A stretch of 64,000 bases of DNA from Octopus vulgaris (lineage: Eukaryota): NCBI GenBank assembly GCA_951406725.2, contig OX597820.1, positions 64,232,001 through 64,296,000 of the forward strand, in the 5' to 3' direction. Positions 3,230-64,000 of the stretch are shown piece after piece (within the stretch, counting starts at the first letter, position 1; each line of letters begins with the position of its first letter). Both the position numbers and the translations under genes were made by a program. Under the pieces are notes generated by a model. It was not told where the DNA came from. It ran no database searches and was given only the letters and a program-made list of their open reading frames with translations.

Positions 3230-4320
3230 AGAAGATGTTGGCTCACCTGGTATATGAAGGCACTGATGCTTATCAATAAATATCTACCCCTCTACACCAC
3301 ACGTAGTTCTTTTAGGTGTTTTCAGCATGATATTAGCAAGATATTTAATAGCTGTAGGCCTTTAAAATACAAGTTATCGCAGCACTTGCTCCTTATTTTG
3401 AACGGAATCTATAGGATCTTTGTAACAGTGGAGTGTCATCCATTTCGGGGCCGGTATAATTTTCGATAACAAAGTTTGGTGCCATGCCTCTCGAATCTCT
3501 CAAGAGTCTCTGCATATCTTCACACGGGGGTGCAAATTTGTAGTTCTTTCAATCTCTCTCAAAAGCTTAAGTACTTCATCGATGCCAAATTTTTGGTGAA
3601 ATACTTCCGGTTCCGCAATTTAACTGACACTTTTCTACTATATTTGCGAGCGCTCCATAGGACCGTAATTGTCTTCTGGTCCCTTGTTCTCTAAGCCCTC
3701 CGAATCATTTCACTATTTTACTATACATTGCAACTATCATGCTAATACGTACATGAAACGTTGCTTTATTATCCACATCATTCTGCAGCTCATGCATTGT
3801 ATTTTACCCTAAAATTTAATTCAAAATATCTGGGTTTGGCATGTTTGCACAAATTAGCTGATAGCGGAGAGCATTGAATTGCGTGTTCATTTCTTCAACT
3901 CATCTATAAATGTCATTTAGATCTTTCTGTAGAAAGTGATTCTTGACTGCTCGCGCTACTTTCGTGCTTACTGTGTATATAGCAGCATGTCTGATAGGGC
4001 CTTCAGGAACTGCAGTGGCCCTTTAGGCAGTCCATTCGCTTCTAATATCTCCTTGAAGATGACTCTATTAGCTGTCACAGAGTGAGATTTGTCGTTTAAG
4101 TATTCATATAACCATTCTGCCAGTTTTCCAATTATACCGAGCGTTATCATCTTATGACATAGTACACCTCTCTCAAGCTTGTGAGAAGCCTTTGCAAAAT
4201 CGAAATTTATCACATCCGTGTTTCAGAGATTCAGAAGTTGTTTCAACGTCCACTCATCATACTGCAGACGCTGTGTAAAGTAGCTTCTTCCCCAACGGAA
4301 GTGATACTGAGTGTCAGGGA
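3230..4320 (-). mobile_element. Decayed non-LTR retrotransposon (CR1/Jockey-group LINE), RT to 3' end
   Basis: ORF 3968-4213 (INFDFAKASHKL..LCHKM..LGIIGKLAEWL..LPKGPL..ALSDM) is a degenerate DFAKAFD..GVPQG..LGPLLF RT segment. Downstream minus-strand frames read YFTKNLASMKYLSF*ERLKEL. Many stops and frameshifts. Confidence 0.8.
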
Positions 4321-4654
4321 GCTACACATTGTAATCGATAACTGTTATCTTCTCTTGTAAATCTCTAGTGCCAAAGACCTGATTCGGCATAATTATTTGC
4401 AAGTGTCCCAACGAAGATATGATAAATAATTTTAGATTGCATTTTCAGTATTTCACACAACATTTGGTGGGTCTGCACTCAGTTAGCCATACTCATCGAA
4501 AAGTAACCCAATTTTACCGACGCTTTTACAAATCTAGAGAAGGCTTCAAGGAATGTCATTACACTTTTTACTGCCCTAGTTTCTTATTTTACCTCCTTTC
4601 TCTCACGTTCGTCTCTCTCTCTTTCTTTCTCTATCTCACTGTCTCCCTCTCTCA

Positions 4655-4730
<76 letters not shown>

Positions 4731-4865
4731 TATAAACAAAACAGTCCGACGAACATTACTTTGAGTAACATTACTTGTGATATTTCTACTGCTTTTCATA
4801 AATTACATACATACATACACACACACACATACATAAACTCTCTCTCTCAAACACACACACACACA

Positions 4866-4904
<39 letters not shown>

Positions 4905-4908
<4 letters not shown>

Positions 4909-5711
4909 GTAAAAAATATAAACTGGGACAAGAACGCAAAACATTTAGAAGATGATACAAATAAAAGGGACGGGACATTCGAAGCCTTCAATCTTCTGTC
5001 AAGAATCGGATCATCCTCGCAATTTCGGCCCCAATTTCGGCCCCAAAGGAAAATCTAAGCCAAGCGCATTAGATTCCTTGGAAGAAAGCCTCGAATGTAT
5101 ACAAAAGAAGGACGGAAAAACGGACGAGGTTAAACGAATACGAATACAAAAATACGTAAAAACAATAATGATAATAATAATAACAAAAACAGGACGTCAC
5201 GGACAGGCGTCTTTCGACAGGACGAGTAAACTTTGAGCTGGCGTGTTAGAAAAATGCCTTAGGGCAGTGAGAAAAAAATGTGTCTTGCCGCGACGACTGC
5301 TAAGTACGAAAGGCCAGCAATCGGTCAGTCAGTCACGTGTCAGGAGAAGAAAGAGGAAAAGAGGTACAGATGAATTAAGGAGGAGGAGAAGAGAGAAAAA
5401 AGGGGGAACAAGTAACAAAGGAGGAGGAGAAGAGAGAGAGAGCGAGAAAGAGACAGATCAAAGTGGAGTGCAAAGTGTGAAGGGCAGAGAAATTTAGGAG
5501 AGGGGGGAGAGACAGTGTTATAGAGTCGTACCATGTTTAAAGAAATATGTACATACATATAGCGCCGCTATATATATATATATATATATGTAAAAAAAAT
5601 ACAAACTGGGACAAGAACGCAAAACGTTTAGAAGACGATACAAAATACACGGACGGGACATTCGAAGCCTTCAATCTTCAGTCAAGAACAGGATCATCCT
5701 CGCAATTTCGG

Positions 5712-5716
<5 letters not shown>
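4905..5716 (-). mobile_element. Non-autonomous retroelement with ~125-bp direct terminal repeats (Penelope pLTR-like)
   Basis: AAACTGGGACAAGAACGCAAAAC..GGATCATCCTCGCAATTTCGG occurs at ~4905-5030 and ~5587-5712. Both copies abut (TA)n, one is truncated, and the interior is non-coding. Family and strand are inferred. Confidence 0.55.
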
Positions 5717-5762
<46 letters not shown>

Positions 5763-6420
5763 TCAATTATTCTTGTCCTATCAGTACACCTTTTATTCGG
5801 CCATTGATGTGGAATGGTGGAATGGAATTGTTTGCAATGAACAAAGTTTAACGGTTACAACAGCAAGAAGCTATTTGCACGGAAAGCGACAAAAACATTT
5901 AGTGAAATTATGATATTTAGAAACTATAAATTCTTATTGGCCATATCTCTTTTCATGATGTATAATGCTTATTACCGACCTGCTTCGAGGGAAATCGCAA
6001 TGAAACCATAACTAGGTTTGGGTACACCAACATAAATATTTCCAGAAATATGTCAGACAATTTTTTTTTATCTAGTCAGTGGGTGGGGGTATTTGTGCAT
6101 ATGCTGGTCATAGCAGAGCCCATTAGCTTGCACTGTTTCCAGTGATATACGCTACACAAAAGTACATTCTATGCGTCACACACATGATGTTTGGGGATCG
6201 GGGATGTGAATATCAGTCATATAATTTGAAGTTAAACCTTGAAAGTCAGACTACGTTGTTTACCCATGCTATTTACAGTCACGTCTTTACTTTCATATTT
6301 CTTACAGCCGCAACTACACGCACGCTTACATTGTAAGAGCACACACACACATAGACATACACATATACACACATATACGCACACATATACACACATATAC
6401 ATATATATATATAATATATA

Positions 6421-6833
6421 GGCGCAGGAGAGGCTGTGTGGTAAGTAGCTTGCTAACCAACCACATGGTTCAGGGTTCAGTCCCACTGCGTGGCACCTTG
6501 GGCAAGTGTCTTCTGCTATAGCCCCGGGCCGACCAATGCCTTGTGAGTGGATTTGGTAGACGGAAACTGAAAGAAGCCTGTCGTATATATGAATATATAT
6601 ATATATGTGTGTGTGTTTGTGTGTTTGTGTTTGTCCCCCTAGCATTGCTTGACAACCGATGCTGGTGTGTTTACGTCCCCGTCACCTAGCGGTTCGGCAA
6701 AAGAGACCGATAGTAGAAGTACTGGGCTTACAAAGAATAAGTCCTGGGGTCCATTTGCTCGACTAAAGGCGGTGCTCCAGCATGGCCGCAGTCAAATGAC
6801 TGAAACAAGTAAAAGAGTAAAGAGTAAAGAGTA
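6421..6833 (+). mobile_element. tRNA-derived SINE family A (CORE-like motif), near full length
   Basis: A-box-like TGGCTGTGTGGTAAG (here AGGCTG), B-box-like GGTTCAGTCCC, CCTTGGGCAAGTG motif, internal (TA)(TG) tract, (AAGAGTA)n tail. Near-identical copies at 32621-32987 and 37732-38153. Confidence 0.9.
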
Positions 6834-6854
6834 TATGAAAATATAAACATACAC

Positions 6855-7748
6855 GGACCCTCGAAAAATGTGGAACGCGTCAGATAAGCGTTGATACAGA
6901 ATCAGAATATTTCTGCTCGAAGGCAATCAACTGAACTTGTCATTGGTAATTGATCGGTAAGGCATGAAAACATGGGTTCCCATCCGTACAAATTGGTCGT
7001 TGAAACAATGAGTTACGCACAACGGCTTAACTTCGCATGTCAGATGGAAGCAATGTTTGAGTCATATGACAAACTAATTTTGTTAATGAATGCTGAAGCT
7101 CAAATTCATCTCAGTGGCATGGTGAACGAACCGAACTATCGTCATTGGGCTCTTGAAAATTTCCGAGGGAACTGCACGAAAGACCTCTGTACAGCACAAA
7201 TATGACGGTCTGGAGTGCTGTTGGAAAAGCTGTCGTCATTGGTCCTTAATTTGTTGAAGACAATAATGGAAATGCTGATAAACAATTTCTTAGAACCTGA
7301 ATTACGACGAAAATCCATCCGTATTCCACGTGTTTGGTTTCAACAGTACAGAGGGACGGCGCACACACCCAGAACATTAATGGGCGTTCTTTGCCCTGTC
7401 TTCATGTCCAGGTTTGCTGACATTCCTTGTCACCCTCTGTCCCCTGATTTGTTCATGTGTGATTATTTCTCAATGCACGTGTGTGTGCGTATAAGCCCCG
7501 TACACAAAACGATTTGAAGGAAGATTTTCGCGTAGAAGTCGCCCAAATTGATACTGTAATACTGGAGATAGTGAAGGCCAAGTTCCAAGGACGACTTCAG
7601 AAATGCATCATTGGAAATGGACACGACATGATTGATGATGTTTTTCAGACTTGATTTTCATAAATTTTAATTCAGTAAATATTTTTGCATCTAAAATTAA
7701 GGATTTTGTGAAATTTTCAAAAACATCCGTCTTCCCTCCACCACCCTG
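6855..7748 (+). mobile_element. Decayed Tc1/mariner-superfamily transposon (rosa/DD41D-like), 5'-truncated
   Basis: HPYKL, MNAEAQIHLSGMVNEPNYRHW (cf. SDEAHFHL.G.VNKQN.RYW), WFQQYRGTAHT (cf. WFQQDGATAHT), PLSPDLFMCDYF. Ends CACCCTG followed by TA. Confidence 0.8.
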
Positions 7749-28222: not shown

Positions 28223-28530
28223 ATTTTTTATATGGTGCTATAATCCTCTATAAATATTTCTTTAGAACTCTTAAAACAAATGTATCCTTATTATTTCTCT
28301 GACTTTTAAATCCATCATTATCATCTCTCACTGCGGTCGATGTATCTTATAACTTTAATTATTAATTCAAACATTTTTAAACCTCAATTTAATATGATTT
28401 TTAATCAATGTATCACTCGTTATTTATTTATCCTTTTCCCGTATGTTTTTACCTCATGTATTTCTTATTACTATTCAAAATAGTATATTGTTATGTTCCT
28501 TCTCGAAATGTATTTATTGTGTTGTATGTA

Positions 28531-28651
28531 ATCATCATCATCATCATCGTCATCATCATCATCATCATCGTCATCATCGTCATCATCGTCATCATCTTCA
28601 TCATCGTCGTCGTAGTCGTCGACGTCGTCATCATCGTCATCATCATCATCG

Positions 28652-28713
<62 letters not shown>

Positions 28714-28820
28714 GTCATCATCGTCATCATCGTCATCATCTTCATCATCGTCGTCGTCGTCGTCGACGTCGTCATCATCGTCATCATCATCATCGTCATC
28801 ATCATCATTATCATCATCAC

Positions 28821-28857
<37 letters not shown>

Positions 28858-28936
28858 GTCATCATCGTCATCATCGTCATCATCGTCATCATCGTCGTCG
28901 TCATCATCGTCGTCATCATCGTCATCATCCTCATCG

Positions 28937-28976
<40 letters not shown>

Positions 28977-29025
28977 TATCATCATCATCATCATCATTAT
29001 TATTAAAATTATTATTATCATTATT
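28531..29025. repeat. Compound (ATC/GTC)n trinucleotide repeat with internal ~144-bp duplication
   Basis: The variant block ATCTTCATCATCGTCGTCGT.GTCGTCGACGTCGTC occurs twice (~28594 and ~28738). Confidence 0.95.
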
Positions 29026-29160
29026 AGATAATAATTCGTATGGTATACACCTGGTAACTTACCGGCACAGAACGTTCACTTTCATTGTTCACTTTCAGTG
29101 TTCGCTGTGTATTTGATTAATGAGAGAGACGTAAGGCGGAGGACACGAGAATGTTTATTG

Positions 29161-56130: not shown

Positions 56131-57599
56131 TTTCTACGAGAAGAGAAAAATAGTGACATACCTGATCTGCAATCTTTAATACATTGTCATCAGTTTTTGA
56201 TTACCTCTTTAACTCGCCGCTGTAACACTTGGTATACAGCCACTATTATTTCGGACTTTATTGAATCGTATATAACAATTTACACAAGTGACACGCTATT
56301 CATAGGTAGTTTAATTGACAGATTGCTGAAGCGTTAGCAATGCCCTTTTGTTGGAGCGTAAAGTACTGCAGAATATAATATTTTAAGGAATTATGACTAA
56401 ATCCGCTTAATGACTACCTAAGTAGAAAGATATTTATGGTCCCCGGTGTTTTTGTTTTTTATTAAAGTTCATTTACAGAAGGAGGAATGTATAAAAACTA
56501 TGACTTTGTATTCGAGCACGTTATGACATATGTAGATCTATGTATATATTGATGAAAGTAACATAGATGTATACATACATGTATGTATATATAATATATA
56601 TATATATGGCTGTATTATGTATGTGTTATGTTATGTTACGCATGTATGTATGAATGTATGTATGTATGCATGTATGTATGTATGTATGTATGTATGTATG
56701 TATGTATGTATGTATGTATGTATGTATGAATGTGTGTATGTGTGTATGTATGTACATAAAGATAGTGTAACTGCAGCTGTTAAAAATATTATTATGACAG
56801 AAAAATAGAAAATTCTCTGAACACTCAAATAATGAATATTCTATTTTGCAATTTTCAAAGAGACGGAGTCACACTCTCATAAGTTTGCACACACATTACA
56901 TGCATACAGACACAAACACATACATAGATACACATACCTCTGTGTGAATGAATATATATATATATATATATGAGAAAGAGAGAGAAAGAGAGGAAAGGGT
57001 TAAGAGAGAGATATGCATATGCATACATATAAATATATATATATGCATATTTGTGAATGCATTCATGTATGGATGAATGCCCATGTATTTGTGTATATAT
57101 GATTGCATGCATTCATATAAATATGTATGTATATATATATATATATATAAATATATATATGCATGTATAATTGAATGAATAAAACCGCAATTGCGAGATC
57201 ATTATAATTAATACATCATTAAAAATTCTCTTCTAATTACTGGCAAAAATTAAAACAGTTTTGTCAATCTAAATTACTAACGAAGGCGAGATATTAATAA
57301 TAAAATGAATAAAATACGAAATTTCATTTTAACTAGAACTCCTCCAATGATTCCGCAATAAAAATATTGCATTTACGCATGCGCACGCTTATAGAGTTTT
57401 ATTTGAATTTATGAAAATATTGAATATCATCAGTATCAAATTGTTGTGCTTAGAAAGTTAACTGAAATGTTATCAACATAACTCAAAGAAACCTTTGCGT
57501 TATAAATTATGTCAGTCGAAAATTCAATAAATATAACGTACTACTTGTTTATATGTTTGAGACAGATTTCTAATGCTGTTGTAAGGAATGCGTGTATAT

Positions 57600-58990
57600 A
57601 AGATTCATACTGGCCACAATCCACCGGAATATCTCCACTGCTCTGTACTGACAGGACCATTGTTCTCACTGACATTAATGCAATATTGGTAAGATGGCGG
57701 CGAGCTGGCAGAAACGCCGGGCGAAATGCGTATCCGTATTTCTTTTGCCGTTACGTTCTGAGTTCAAATTCCGCCGATGTCGACTTTGCCTTTCAGCCTT
57801 TCGGGGTCGATAAATTAAGTAACACTTACGAACTGGGGTCGATATAATCGACTTAATCCGTTTGTCTGTCTTGTTTGTCCTCTCTGTGTTTGGCCCCTTG
57901 TGGGTAGTAAGGAAATAGGTAAGATGGCAAAGCATTTCAACAATTTTCTGAACACGCGTTGTTCTATCAATGAAGAGACCATTGCTCGTATGCCCTAAGC
58001 TGACATCAACATTATCTGGCAGAGCCTCCAACAGAAGCAGAATTTCAGAAGGCAATTAAGATTTGCCTTAAATGGCAAAGCACCAGGCACTGGCCTCCAA
58101 CACTATACAAGCCTTGAGGAAAGTATTGATACACAAACTCGCCAATTTCTTTCAGACCATGTGGCAACAGGAAGTTGTTCCCCAGGAGCTTAAAGACGCA
58201 ATAGGCGTTCCAGTGACAACCAACGAGGAATTTATCTGCTCATCGTCGCTGTCAAGATACTCGTAAGCGTCCTCCATGACCACCTCATTCAGCAAAAAGA
58301 AGACGGTCATCTGCCAGAGAGTCCATGTGGCTTCAGAGAGTGTGTAGCTAAGTCGACATTATATTTGCCGTACACCAACTTTAAGCGAAATGCCAGGAAC
58401 AGAACAGGGATATGACCTTTGTAGACCTAACCAAGGCCTTGATACTGTCAGCCATGAATGACTTTGGAAGATCATGGGAAAATTGGGCTACCAGGAAAAT
58501 TATTCAGCAAAATGTGACAGTTTCACAACGACATGCTTGCGCGAGTACTGAAAAATGGAGATTCTTCCGATGCATTCCCAGTCACGAACAGAGCCAAGCC
58601 CGGCTGTGTACTCACACCTACACTGTTGAGTATGATTTTCTCAGCCGTACTGTAGGATGCGTTCTGCAATGACGGCGAAACTAGCATCAAGATAAGATTC
58701 AGGACTGATAGCTGACTCTTCATCCTGCAGCGGCTACAAGCTAAGACTAAGGTACAAACGGAAGCGGTGCGCGACTTCCTGTTTGTAGTAAACTGCTCAT
58801 TCAACGTCACCACAGACACCTAAACGCATCACAGCATAAACTGCTTTCCCATTGCCAGCAATAACTTTGGCATTAAAATCAATATCGAAGTCATGCACCA
58901 ACTTGCTCTGCAAAACTCATATTTAGAACCAACTATCACTGTTGAAGCGGAAACCTGGAAGGTTATTGTACTCTACTCTAGAGCATTGAC
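57600..58990 (+). mobile_element. Decayed RTE (BovB-like) LINE fragment
   Basis: AILVRW, NGKAPG, VPQELKDA, LPESPCGFR, TFVDLTKA, GCVLTPTLLSMIFS; many frameshifts. Confidence 0.88.
57696..57917 (+). mobile_element. Young SINE family B copy with target-site duplication
   Basis: Flanked by GGTAAGAT(GGC) at 57688 and 57918; interrupts the RTE frame. Confidence 0.9.
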
Positions 58991-58994
58991 GACG

Positions 58995-60068
58995 AAGTCC
59001 TCGCGCCGACACTTGTCACAATCACTACAGTACTATACTCCATCAGGCCACTGAAAGTGTTGGTGGTAAAGATGGGATTTTCATGTGTTGTGAACCTACA
59101 TGCTCAAACCAAAACACTGGAACGACGCATCCATGACTTAGTTTTCATAGACGATGCTCCCTTGTTAGCGCTTAGAGAAACTGTTTCTTGCAAGACAAGA
59201 GCTACCTGACACTTTAGCCTATAAGCTTAAAGAAAACAGAAATTCTCCCACCTGCATCACTCCAAAAATACTAACCCTCACATCCCCACAAAGGAGACTG
59301 AACTAAACATAGTCAAACAGTTCACCTTCACAGGGTGTACCATCGTGCCAGATGCCAAAATCTACAAAGAAGTTAATAACAGACCGGTCAAAGCAAACAA
59401 TGCATTCGGCAGATTGTACAAAATAGAATTTGGAACAATAACATGAAGAATGCAACCAAGATCTGTTTATATAAAGGCGTCGTTCTGACCACACTCTCGT
59501 ACGGATCAGAGTCATGGGTCATCTGACAGGACTACGAACGAATCCCTGAGCGATTCCATCAGCGCTATCTTCGTATCATTCTCAGCATCCACTGGTGTAA
59601 CTTTCACACTAAAGTAGAGATCCTAGGGCAGGCGAAGGCCACCAACATCGAAGCAATACTACAGAAAAAAAGCTCTGCTGGGCAGAACAGGTCACTCGGT
59701 TGAACGATCAACGTTGAGATATCACGATGTATTACAATCTATCTTCCGGTCACCGTCATACAGGCGCGCCTAAGAATACGGCCGAGAGGCACCTAAGGAA
59801 ATCCTTTGAAACCTGCCACTGTTGCTGAGAGTGAAGCCTGGTATGTTACAGTCCATCGCACAATAGCTTCCTATGAAGACACCAACAGACACGAGGGGGA
59901 GGAGAAAAAAAAACACTAAAACCATTACGACCAGCCCTGACCAACCCACATTCGCATGCATCCTCTGGCGTCATAAGTGTTTGTGGAGAATCGGACCTGT
60001 TGACATGAGTGGCCTTGCCATGGACAAGAACATCTCCGTTCATAAATCTTCGCTCGCGAAGCCATACC
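58995..60068 (+). mobile_element. Second 5'-truncated RTE LINE with 3' end
   Basis: RT motif restarts (VLAPTL..LVFIDDA), then VVLTTLSYGSESW, ERFHQR, and the terminal hairpin CTTCGCTCGCGAAG before (CA)n. Confidence 0.8.
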
Positions 60069-60696: not shown

Positions 60697-60978
60697 GATA
60701 AACAGATATAGATATAGATATATATGCATATATATATAGATAATATATATAACTACGAATGTATGTATACTTTAATATATATGTATATATATATATATAC
60801 GTATACATATATATATTTATATATGTATATATATATATATATATATTAATAAAAAGAATTCCAACCTTGTCTGATTTTCACGTTTTATTTACAATCTTAT
60901 AATGATATATTATAAGATAATATATTATAATTGAATAAAATAAAATGAAATAGTAGAATGTTAAATATTCATTCTGAT

Positions 60979-61023
60979 TGAACTAGTACTTTCATGCATT
61001 GAATTCTGCAATCTTCGGGTTCA
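60979..61023 (-). ncRNA. Minimal type I hammerhead ribozyme in the PLE terminal repeat
   Basis: UGAAC-C[C]GAAGA-U-UGCA-GAAUUCAA-UGCA-U-GAAA-GUAC-UA^GUUCA: 5-bp stem I, 4-bp stem II, palindromic stem III AGUACU, U4->C variant. Predicted cut between 60984 and 60983. Confidence 0.8.
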
Positions 61024-61059
61024 TGTAGTAGTGTTGACAGTCATGCTTCACAATTTTTG

Positions 61060-61200
61060 ACTGTAGCAAGATGAGTGATTCTGTGCTATAAATACAGCTG
61101 GGTAGGCTCCAGAGTGCTAGGTTTTGCAAACTGTATTCTGACCAATCAGTGTGTAGTATCACTCAATTACTTAAGCTGATTGGTTGGTTGAGCTGATTGG
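61060..61200 (-). promoter_or_regulatory. Putative internal Pol II promoter of the PLE pLTR
   Basis: Three CCAATCAG boxes (61142-61149 +; 61176-61183 and 61193-61200 -), TATTTATA/TATAAATA at 61087-61094, and an Inr-like ACAGTC ~25-30 nt downstream on the minus strand. Confidence 0.5.
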
Positions 61201-61517
61201 TTTAGGCATCATGCTTTGTTGGACAGGTCAAGAGTCCTGTATCTTGACCCTGGCCGAAGCAGCAATTGTTGGGTTATTTTTAGAAATGTTGTAAATATCC
61301 TTTGTCAGAGATTTTTATATTTTTATATTTCAATTGTCATCATCATCATTGTCAGCACCTTAATTATTGTTGCTAGTGGTGATGGTGGTGGCAATAGAGC
61401 TTTTAACCCTAAATAAGATAATTTTCCTGCTATCTTCGTCTTGATCACCTTTAGTATTGTTGTTGTTGTTAGTGGTCATGGTCGTAGCAGTGGAAGTAAT
61501 ACCTCTAAGTATTATTA

Positions 61518-63845
61518 TTATTGCTTATTTAGCTTGGGTTCGAATTTATCAATAAAATTCTTTTCTCTGATTTTCCTCTCGATTTCACTTGGGCTGTGTA
61601 ATTTGTAGAATGGAAATATTATATATATTTTCCGACCACATGTTGCTAGGTGGTTACTCAAAGGTATCTGACGGACCTCTGGGTCTCTAATCTGTTGCCG
61701 GTGTACACGTGAGCGTTCTAATAGTGCGTTTCCCGTCTGACCTACATATATTTCTTCACAATTTGGGCATTTGATGCAGTAAATTAAATTTCTGCTTTTG
61801 CAGTTCATATTCGCGTTTGTGAATATTTTCCCGGTTTTTGTGTTTATATATTGACCGGTATGTATGAATTGGCATGTGCCACATCGGCTATCATTGCATT
61901 TAGATACCGTGAATGTTTGGTCTTTGTTGCTGAGGTCAAATTTTGCCTTTGTTAGTAATGTTTTCAAGTTTTTAGGCTGTCTTTTACTAAGCACCATAGC
62001 TCGATCCTTGATTATGTCTTTTAATTCATTACTTTGGGCAATGATTGGTAGGTTTGCTTTGGCAATGTTGAAGATATTCTGGTGACATGGGTTGTGTGTC
62101 ACTATGAATGGTATGACTTGTTCTTGTTTTCCTCTTCCTTGGGTTGTCCTAAGTTGTTGTATAGGTATTTTTATAGCCCGCTGTATGCCATTTTCTATAA
62201 GTAGAGATGGGTATTTTTGTTTGAGCAAAAATTCTCTTAGTTCTATTAGGCGTTTGTTCCTGATATTTGCATCTTCTACAATAGTACAAATTCTTCTGGC
62301 TAGGCAGTATGGGATGTTACGTTTTGTATGTGGTGGATGGCACGACTTAAAATTTAGGTATTGATGTGTGTCTGTGTGTTTATAGTATATATCTGTGGTG
62401 ATGGTGGTGTCTTTTTTAATTACCATTATATCCAGGAATGGTAATTTGGTACTACTCATCTCCTTTGTAAATTTGAGAGATGGGTGTAGGTTGTTCAGGA
62501 GGATATTGAACTCTTCCAGAGTATTTAGAGATTCTGTCCAGATTATGAAACAGTCGTCTAGGTATCTCTTCCATGCCTTTTCAATATACTTTCTAAATCC
62601 AGTGCCATAGTTTACCTCCACCTCTTGGTAGAGTTGTTCTTCTAAGTATCCCATTACAGAGTTGGCGTAAACGGGAGCAAACCTCGTTCCCATCGCCGTG
62701 CCTCTAATTTGGATGTAATTCTTTCCATTGAAGAAGAATGTGTTATTTTCTAGAATAAGTTTGACTGTGTCTAATATAAATGGCACTGTGAATCTGCTGG
62801 GAATCACTTCTCTATGTTTTTCTAACCAGTATTTAATCGCCTTTATTCCTAAATCGTGTGGAATATTGGTGTAGAGGCTTACCACATCAAAACTTAGTAA
62901 AACTGAATTTGTTTCTGTTGTTTTGGGAAGATGGGACAGGAAGTCGATGTCATCCCTGATGAAACTTGGTATGTAAGTACATAGTGGTTTCAAAACAATG
63001 TCAATAAAATTGCTTAGACGGTGTGTAGGGCATGCTGGACCAGCTATAATAGGTCTAAGTTTTAGGTCTTTTGGATGTAATAATTTTATGTACTCACTTT
63101 CTTGTTCTTTTACTGCCTGTTGAATGTTTTTTGATTTGTGTATTTTTGGTAAGCCGTAGAAGTTGCTGGGTTTTGGTTCAAAATTGGTGATGTAGTCTTT
63201 TTCATTATCCGTAAGTGAGTTGTGGTGTGTTGAAATCAGGTTGTTGATCTTTTTCATGATGTGGTGGTCTATATTTGCGGGTATTTCACAATAGAAGGTT
63301 GTATCCTTCAGTTGGTCTTCAACCAAATCCTTATAGTATTCGGTATCCATAATAACAATTGCACCACCTTTACCTGCTTGTTTAATTATTATTGTTTGAT
63401 CGTTTTGTATACGTTTACATGCAGACATCTCTGATTTGCTAATGTTTGGCCTAACATTGGTATTGCGTCTAAGGGGAAATTTAGACAGGATATCAATGTA
63501 TTGGTCAAGGTAGTTATTTCTTCCTTTTGGTGGGGTGAAATTTGATTTATTCCTTACTAGGGATTCATCAATCTCATTACTTTTGTTAGCGAAGAATTCT
63601 ACAAGTCGTAATTTTCGACAGAATTTTTGGATATCCTCCTTTAATTCTTGGTGGTTGGCTGTTGGTGTAGGTGTGAATTTCAGTCCTTTTGACAGAAGTT
63701 GGATTTCATCATTGTCAAGATCTCTTTTTGATAAATTAATTATTTTAGGATCTATACGTTCAGTTGTTTGGGGTATGTTTCCTCTTCGATTTTTTCTTTC
63801 TCCGGTGTTTGTTGTCCTGACGTAAAAAAATGGATTTTTTTCTGG
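61518..63845 (-). CDS. Penelope-like reverse transcriptase + GIY-YIG endonuclease (775-codon open frame; first ATG at 63428)
   Basis: IINLS..E..LLSKGLKFTPTP lies upstream of the ATG. Then FYGLPKIHK, LRPII, FDVVSLYTNI, GTAMG, RYLDD, PFLD, CNDSRCGTC (Cys-rich Neptune-type linker), LIYCIKC..IYVGQT, R..HR, E..I..F.P.LN. Confidence 0.93.
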   Translation of the reverse strand, partial: PEKNPFFYVRTTNTGERKNRRGNIPQTTERIDPKIINLSKRDLDNDEIQLLSKGLKFTPTPTANHQELKEDIQKFCRKLRLVEFFANKSNEIDESLVRNKSNFTPPKGRNNYLDQYIDILSKFPLRRNTNVRPNISKSEMSACKRIQNDQTIIIKQAGKGGAIVIMDTEYYKDLVEDQLKDTTFYCEIPANIDHHIMKKINNLISTHHNSLTDNEKDYITNFEPKPSNFYGLPKIHKSKNIQQAVKEQESEYIKLLHPKDLKLRPIIAGPACPTHRLSNFIDIVLKPLCTYIPSFIRDDIDFLSHLPKTTETNSVLLSFDVVSLYTNIPHDLGIKAIKYWLEKHREVIPSRFTVPFILDTVKLILENNTFFFNGKNYIQIRGTAMGTRFAPVYANSVMGYLEEQLYQEVEVNYGTGFRKYIEKAWKRYLDDCFIIWTESLNTLEEFNILLNNLHPSLKFTKEMSSTKLPFLDIMVIKKDTTITTDIYYKHTDTHQYLNFKSCHPPHTKRNIPYCLARRICTIVEDANIRNKRLIELREFLLKQKYPSLLIENGIQRAIKIPIQQLRTTQGRGKQEQVIPFIVTHNPCHQNIFNIAKANLPIIAQSNELKDIIKDRAMVLSKRQPKNLKTLLTKAKFDLSNKDQTFTVSKCNDSRCGTCQFIHTGQYINTKTGKIFTNANMNCKSRNLIYCIKCPNCEEIYVGQTGNALLERSRVHRQQIRDPEVRQIPLSNHLATCGRKIYIIFPFYKLHSPSEIERKIREKNFIDKFEPKLNKQ

Positions 63846-64000
63846 TTATGATTTATATTCCTGTTGATGTTTGCTTGATGAATTTTGCGTTTTGGTTTAG
63901 AGGATTGACACACAATCCTCTATTTTAAAGGAAATAGAAAAACAGTCTACAGACGGAAAACTTGGAAATGAACACATAAACTCTGAAATTAAGAATTTAG

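Follow-up and report, generated by a model that had tools for sequence, protein, structure and literature searches.

The window analysed here is a 64,000-nucleotide stretch of the Octopus vulgaris genome (contig OX597820.1, positions 64,232,001 to 64,296,000). Near its right end, on the minus strand, lies a young, high-copy retrotransposon which, on the features described below, is an endonuclease (EN)-bearing Penelope-like element (PLE), probably of the Neptune type, with two open reading frames (ORFs). ORF1 overlaps ORF2, which encodes a reverse transcriptase (RT) followed by a GIY-YIG endonuclease. Comparison of copies and relatives suggests that the RT-endonuclease is very probably made by programmed -1 ribosomal frameshifting at a conserved slippery heptamer.

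The element and its overlapping reading frames

Unless stated otherwise, features are on the minus strand and positions are those of the window. ORF2 (61518..63845) comprises 775 codons from stop to stop. As described in the initial annotation, the frame is open from 63845 and extends 139 codons above its first AUG, which is codon 140; no in-frame AUG precedes the conserved N-terminal IINLS...KGLKFTPTP block (63663..63743, with IINLS at 63743-63729 and KGLKFTPTP at 63689-63663). Further downstream are the DKG motif (63372..63374), which reads GKG in the window copy, the catalytic YLDD motif of the RT (62553..62564, aa 428-431), a zinc-finger-like CX4CX2C linker between RT and EN (61872..61898, aa 650-658) and the GIY-YIG endonuclease, which has a CxxC between its two motifs (61527..61787). 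In Pfam, RVT_1 matched aa 290-442 of ORF2 with an E value of 2e-6, below the curated cut-off, and GIY-YIG matched aa 687-773 with an E value of 3e-5, above the cut-off. The best named RT homologues were from bivalves.

Four codons plus CCA after the stop that bounds ORF2 upstream there is a run of seven U residues (63824..63830). That this run meets an open -1 frame, as noted before, could be verified: the overlapping frame reads CAT TTT TTT ACG at the site, which is U_UUU_UUU in the -1 phase, the predicted shift site, and the overlap of the two ORFs is 91 nt long (63845-63755). Three homopolymers (A7, U7 and A6) lie within the overlap. A second, weaker candidate shift site, G_AAA_AAA, is located just 5' of U7 (63836..63842) and is absent from the junctions of other families. 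The upstream frame ends with the ORF1 stop codon (63754-63752), 23 codons past the heptamer.

The initial annotation had proposed that RT-EN is fused to an upstream ORF. The overlapping frame required for this is present, but a full ORF1 was found only in other copies. In the window copy, which is cut at 63897, the upstream frame (63752..63897, KPKRK...QLNV-stop) represents only the last ~48 codons of ORF1; this copy is a remnant that lacks its 5' part and is itself unable to make the fusion. A palindromic head-to-head junction (63900..63920) joins it to a second, inverted copy, which begins on the plus strand (63901..64000) with an ORF1 lacking its first ~29 codons and runs beyond the window (3901-7343 in locus L031). 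The RT frames of the two copies differ by a single residue, in the DKG motif, where the companion has the Asp, and both copies end in (TA)n. The 3' UTR or pseudo-LTR of the window copy (60845..61517, with the (TA)n tract at its end) has the same sequence as the region 5' of ORF1 in tandem copies; in tandem full copies the element's own 3' end stands 5' of ORF1. Within the pseudo-LTR, a pattern of our own with a paired helix I detected a minimal type-I hammerhead-ribozyme-like motif (60979..61023). The same core and helix were seen in 3 of 14 other elements tried; an Rfam search returned no hammerhead match and low-complexity matches only.

RVT_1, GIY-YIG, YLDD, the CxxC in EN, pseudo-LTRs and tandem as well as palindromic inverted junctions are all as in EN-bearing PLEs, for which palindromic head-to-head junctions have been described (PMC3846280). 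The linker CX4CX2C fits the CX2-5CxxC pattern that marks Neptune and Nematis in the account of PMC8557442, and the ~20-aa spacer following it resembles, by eye, the Neptune and not the Nematis rows in supplementary Fig. S2 of that paper. Canonical EN-bearing PLEs are described there as single-ORF elements (Craig et al. 2021, PMC8557442), whereas the dominant allele of the family studied here has two overlapping ORFs.

Conservation of the split layout in copies and relatives

The comparison of copies proposed in the initial annotation was made in two ways. U7 was present in 30 of 30 genomic loci, which had been picked by likeness across the junction. A second count with a query lying outside the junction covered 150 genomic copies: the 775-codon RT frame was exact in 110, shorter in 26 and longer in 14. 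The shorter ones were left out of the indel analysis. In eleven of the longer copies ORF1 and RT are fused, by one or other of six indels; two carry one-base deletions and one is an inversion junction. The result that the initial annotation had named as refuting its reading, one continuous ORF in other copies, was not borne out: the split frame is kept in 110 copies and 11 are fused. Some fused copies share single-nucleotide polymorphisms. Among the copies L062-L075 and L089-L091, two unrelated-looking ones have an identical G insertion in the overlap region. In full copies (L003, L010, L020, L023 and L025 among 29 examined) a 430-aa ORF1 begins with AUG. Older relatives within the family read U_UUU_UUA followed by A in 3 of 8 pattern matches, so that the U7 of the window family looks derived.

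For other families, the same genome was searched with distant ORF1 and distant RT sequences. Forty loci were picked to span frame lengths, and 35 of these included the RT N-terminus. In 31 of the 35 a U6 or U7 run stands in the RT phase and the frame is open from there; the other four carry indels. These loci represent seven further families (grouped by eye), all with U_UUU_UUA. Foreign contigs yielded 145 loci, 42 with the RT N-terminus, of which 17 were examined in detail; in 11 of the 42, U_UUU_UU(A/G) stands in the -1 phase and is traversed by the upstream frame. Across the seven other families and the foreign relatives ORF1 is only ~25-40% identical. The RT clade to which the window element belongs (20 rows, support 99) has 11 members with a junction; 9 of these carry the heptamer and the two misses look decayed. 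The run occupies one codon phase in 12 of 12 cases for which DNA was available. By chance such runs are rare: elsewhere in eight such elements 8 U6 runs occur in 26,469 nt, which corresponds to a chance of ~1% of meeting one with the right phase within 100 nt. The heptamer count excludes six loci (L130, L173, L183, L136, L147 and L199) that were judged decayed, distant or unclear. One of them, the distant PLE-like locus L173, has A_AAA_AAC in the -1 phase (1215-1221), 10 codons 5' of the upstream stop, and L130, which may be decayed, has U_UUA_AAC in the -1 phase right at the upstream stop (485-491). Viral contigs contained no relative, and plasmids no match to an ORF1 homologue. The PLE contigs L177-L240 are of animal type and occur within many bacterial metagenome-assembled genome records; they are likely host contamination.

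The search for ORF1 homologues gave 441 clusters at 50% identity. The protein tails of 149 were analysed, 58 being dropped as partial. In 72 of the 91 kept, F-L or F-F occurs within the last 47 residues, compared with 8% expected, and in 72 of these 72 the preceding residue can be encoded by a codon ending in U. The best 150 ORF1 homologues of the 441 clusters are all at most 706 aa long, too short for a fusion with RT. Of 350 RT homologues, the 120 best do not exceed 845 aa, with lengths up to 1,357 permitted by the search. A word-based search, which is a weak test, turned up 273 candidates, none of them a longer ORF1 homologue with a fusion.

What these comparisons show is a layout of two ORFs offset by -1, a heptamer conserved in phase, and no AUG ahead of the conserved RT N-terminus. 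They also bear on the explanation that the split frame is a defect, i.e. that a single ORF was broken by an indel in a master element whose copies spread in trans, or that the break is an assembly error. Single-ORF PLEs do exist among distant relatives (seven loci with an N-terminal part of 164-277 aa, of which five fall in a clade lacking the zinc linker), and a few fused copies occur in the window family. The fused copies, however, stem from six different indels, the split form is also that of the short-read contigs from four runs, and offset and motif recur in foreign relatives as well as in eight families of this genome. Conservation across families effectively refutes the defect explanation, and we regard it as negligible.

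Frameshifting and the other routes to RT expression

Tandem slippage on X_XXY_YYZ heptamers is an established eukaryotic -1 mechanism (PMC3498833). In the proposed scheme translation would mostly end at the stop of the 430-aa ORF1; a minority of ribosomes would move back by one base on U_UUU_UUU and produce a predicted ORF1-RT-EN fusion of 407 + 768 = 1,175 aa. Slippage, itself inferred like its rate, would set a high ratio of ORF1 to RT as in gag-pol. Translation entering the RT frame at the heptamer predicts that the frame is open downstream of it, closes upstream and has no AUG before INLS, and this was observed: in 19 elements the RT frame is free of stops over all 327 codons between heptamer and ORF1 stop and closes within 145 codons in total upstream, and an AUG is absent from the interval between heptamer and INLS in 11 of 12 elements and in 7 of 8 families of this genome.

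The same data speak to termination-reinitiation, by which L1 and SART1 elements express their second ORF. Here a ribosome that has finished ORF1 would begin again in the RT frame, using a near-cognate codon next to the stop; an AUA overlaps the UAG of the window family, in family D an AUG lies 4 nt ahead of the stop, and many RT homologues have been called with a start just before INLS, though gene callers write M for GUG and UUG too. Such a restart needs neither the heptamer nor an open RT frame between heptamer and stop, yet this frame is open in 19 of 19 elements, and the scarcity of AUG codons in the interval just described also argues against it. We therefore consider reinitiation most improbable. 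As a separate observation, the ORF1 stops of the 19 elements are TAA (12) or TAG (7), and the next base is A (10), C (6) or T (3), never G; these contexts may reflect weak termination or be a by-product of coding in the RT frame.

Several observations weigh against frameshifting. The F-L/F tail is missing in 19 of the 91 ORF1 homologues. A Mytilus gene model, P0052 (609 aa, protein only), matches both ORF1 and RT. The relatives share ancestry, and the counts given above consequently overstate their independence. No conserved downstream hairpin or pseudoknot was found, including in the interval 5-9 nt 3' of the site, the pseudoknot search being made with a simple, crude script. Fusing indels outnumber non-fusing ones 11 to 2 (p 0.02). 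Finally, the heptamer is followed at once by G in 15 of 19 elements, which gives TTTTTTAG, a sequence resembling a splice acceptor, and the first AG after it is in a single phase (phase 2) in 17 of 19, the window family included.

The excess of fusing indels may be due to cis-preference for fused RNAs or to short-lived fused sub-lineages. The former would fit a model in which transcriptional or reverse-transcriptional slippage on the U or A runs adds one base in a minority of the RNAs and thereby gives a fused message, and the A7, U7 and A6 homopolymers of the overlap could serve as substrates. Polymerase slippage is blind to codon phase, though, and the run is in one phase in the 12 DNA cases and in all seven other families; the relatives, moreover, have U6 only, and contigs showed no gap across the site. 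Taken together, these points make polymerase slippage a very improbable source of the RT.

The acceptor-like sequence and the mostly shared phase of the AG speak for a retained intron, the other mechanism considered in the initial annotation, which had read the AG at 63817..63818 as a 3' splice site. RT would then be translated from RNA spliced at the U-run and next AG, and unspliced RNA would serve for ORF1. Retention of introns is known in PLEs (PMC8557442, PMC3846280). The AG exists, but its proposed role is not supported by donor, phase and retrocopy evidence. With a generic matrix and a threshold of 4.5 bits, a phase-matched consensus donor reaching at least this score was missing in 19 of 19 elements, several of whose ORF1s are incomplete. 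The first AG is in phase 1 in L098 and in phase 0 in L110, the codon of the next residue cannot start with G in 20 of the 72 ORF1 tails, and the older copies of the window family have A after U_UUU_UUA (see above). Spliced retrocopies were found in 0 of 8 pattern matches. Contigs crossed the site with neither gap nor joint in 4 of 4 runs for the window family and in 3 of 4 for family C, which is weak evidence since the RNA nature of the runs was a guess and minor forms are lost from contigs. An intron would also leave unexplained why ORF1 always runs through the site. We judge splicing very unlikely, and the comparative evidence favours the frameshift, the first of the two mechanisms originally offered.

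A candidate stimulator, and comparison with known systems

The statement of the initial annotation that there is no strong stimulatory hairpin agrees with our folding of the junction regions. Near the site of the window family z was about +0.3 to +0.9, families B and C have almost no pairing downstream of the heptamer, and z fell below -2 only in L096, L101, L177 and family G.

The position of the ORF1 stop is non-random. It lies exactly 10 codons past the site in 19 of 72 tails, closer in one and farther in 52; the spacings in the eight families of this genome are 23, 10, 10, 11, 20 (10 in a sister copy), 23, 10 and 30. The stretch after the heptamer is poor in U, with a stop rate of 4/190 in the third frame, and a stop rate of 2% would still put 30% of the spacings below 10 (p-values ignore relatedness). 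On the ORF1 tree, a quick one, the 10-codon class calls for 10 changes, 7 of these being forced by well-supported branches. Families D, E and H have TGG as codon 11 past the heptamer, where family C and L258 have a stop (loci L247, L250, L252, L254 and L258). The 10-codon stop toggles by single transitions. Residue 11 after F-L in long tails gave no clear trace of a lost stop.

Ten codons is the minimal gap between collided ribosomes, and disomes are enriched at stops, according to a profiling preprint on yeast and human cells (bioRxiv 2023.02.01.526718). Combining the spacing with these data, we propose a ribosome queue as stimulator: a ribosome terminating at the ORF1 stop would park its follower on the slippery site, and RT output would thus be tied to ribosome load. 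In relatives with a 10-codon stop, a ribosome queued behind the terminating one is the leading candidate, though a tentative one. Its wider form, that a large Neptune-type lineage performs structure-free -1 frameshifting with another ribosome as roadblock, and that the window family, with U7 and 23 codons, is a derived form, is a speculation more likely wrong than right. Longer spacings in the 52 tails, the window family included, speak against the queue, as does L101, which has 1 codon. With its stop at 23 codons the window family in particular fits the model poorly; its extra-slippery U7 may act alone. A need for a short tail at the protein level may be another cause of the spacing.

Eight ORF1 proteins without F-L have F-R/H instead and one has F-L at 9, and in 6 of these 9 the F is codon 11 before the stop. 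The proteins concerned (P0197, P0239, P0242, P0245, P0248, P0251, P0256, P0258 and P0259) have F at 9-11 codons from the stop, with R, H or L next, and belong to several lineages. Judged from the protein sequences, a change to +1 shifting on UUU_C, of the PA-X type, may have taken place in these lineages; no DNA for this putative class was found.

ORF1 has no Pfam family. Its first 253 aa were modelled as six long helices with a pLDDT of 91, and a basic, low-complexity tail follows. Foldseek gave no match to the model at E 0.001, the best VIA Z was 9.6, to generic helical bundles, with no fold assignment, comparison with the PDB by sequence gave none, and the ESM Atlas returned unnamed clusters only, below 0.9. 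ORF1 showed no significant homology to the N-terminal part of single-ORF PLEs (hhalign probability 0.2, E 0.26). As a predicted all-helical domain with a basic tail, ORF1 is by analogy a candidate RNA-binding or packaging protein.

The element shares with Neptune, as described in PMC8557442, the order of RT and C-terminal GIY-YIG, the CX2-5CxxC linker, pseudo-LTRs and tandem and inverted insertions. The candidate hammerhead-like motif and the (TA)n flank may be further common traits; the legend naming (TA)n does so without a clade. In contrast to that description, the window family has the 430-aa ORF1 overlapping RT in the -1 phase and the conserved heptamer. Neptune-like PLEs of fish and molluscs contain esterases (PMC5408684), and extra coding parts in Neptune were thus already known. 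For a killifish Neptune, the part seen of PMC12602865 gives two non-overlapping, ATG-called ORFs and mentions no frameshift. Athena and Coprina differ from the window element, which has GIY-YIG, in being EN-less, and in Naiad and Chlamys the EN is N-terminal, whereas here it is C-terminal. In the legend to Fig. 1 of PMC8557442 and of its preprint an ORF1 separated by a frameshift with pseudoknot is given for PLEs of unnamed clade, probably Athena and Terminon. Such PLEs resemble the window family in having ORF1 5' of RT, a proposed frameshift and a helical, coiled-coil-like ORF1; they differ in the pseudoknot, as neither this nor a conserved hairpin was found in the window family. The legend may already include Neptune, and it is conceivable, though the contrary seems more probable, that PLE frameshifting is already partly known. 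In the literature listings and passages searched, this legend included, there was no description of the PLE shift site studied here or of a stop-queue stimulator.

Among viral systems, HIV-1 gag-pol (PMC3498833) has the U_UUU_UUA of the sister families and the same -1 geometry of first ORF and polymerase. Unlike HIV-1, the PLE family has no 3' stem-loop, the window family has U7, and the spacing to the stop seldom falls below 10 codons and peaks there. In SARS-CoV-2 the position of the zero-frame stop also matters and ribosome traffic has been invoked, but the stop is 5 codons away and was proposed to let the pseudoknot refold (PMC8168617). The PLE stop, in contrast, is at collision distance with no structure found, and the terminating ribosome would itself be the roadblock.

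If the two-ORF, gag-pol-like plan is widespread, RT proteins will have been called with false starts and ORF1 missed, and reconstituting Neptune retrotransposition would need ORF1 plus the transframe protein. Stop spacings with their 10-codon floor and spike would offer a natural series on stop-codon collisions driving frameshifting without RNA structure.

Elsewhere in the window, positions 57540-59520 contain broken frames with motifs resembling, by eye, a decayed non-LTR RT, and a trinucleotide microsatellite of the ATC/GAT type (28400-29075, ~650 bp) is a source of long spurious ORFs.

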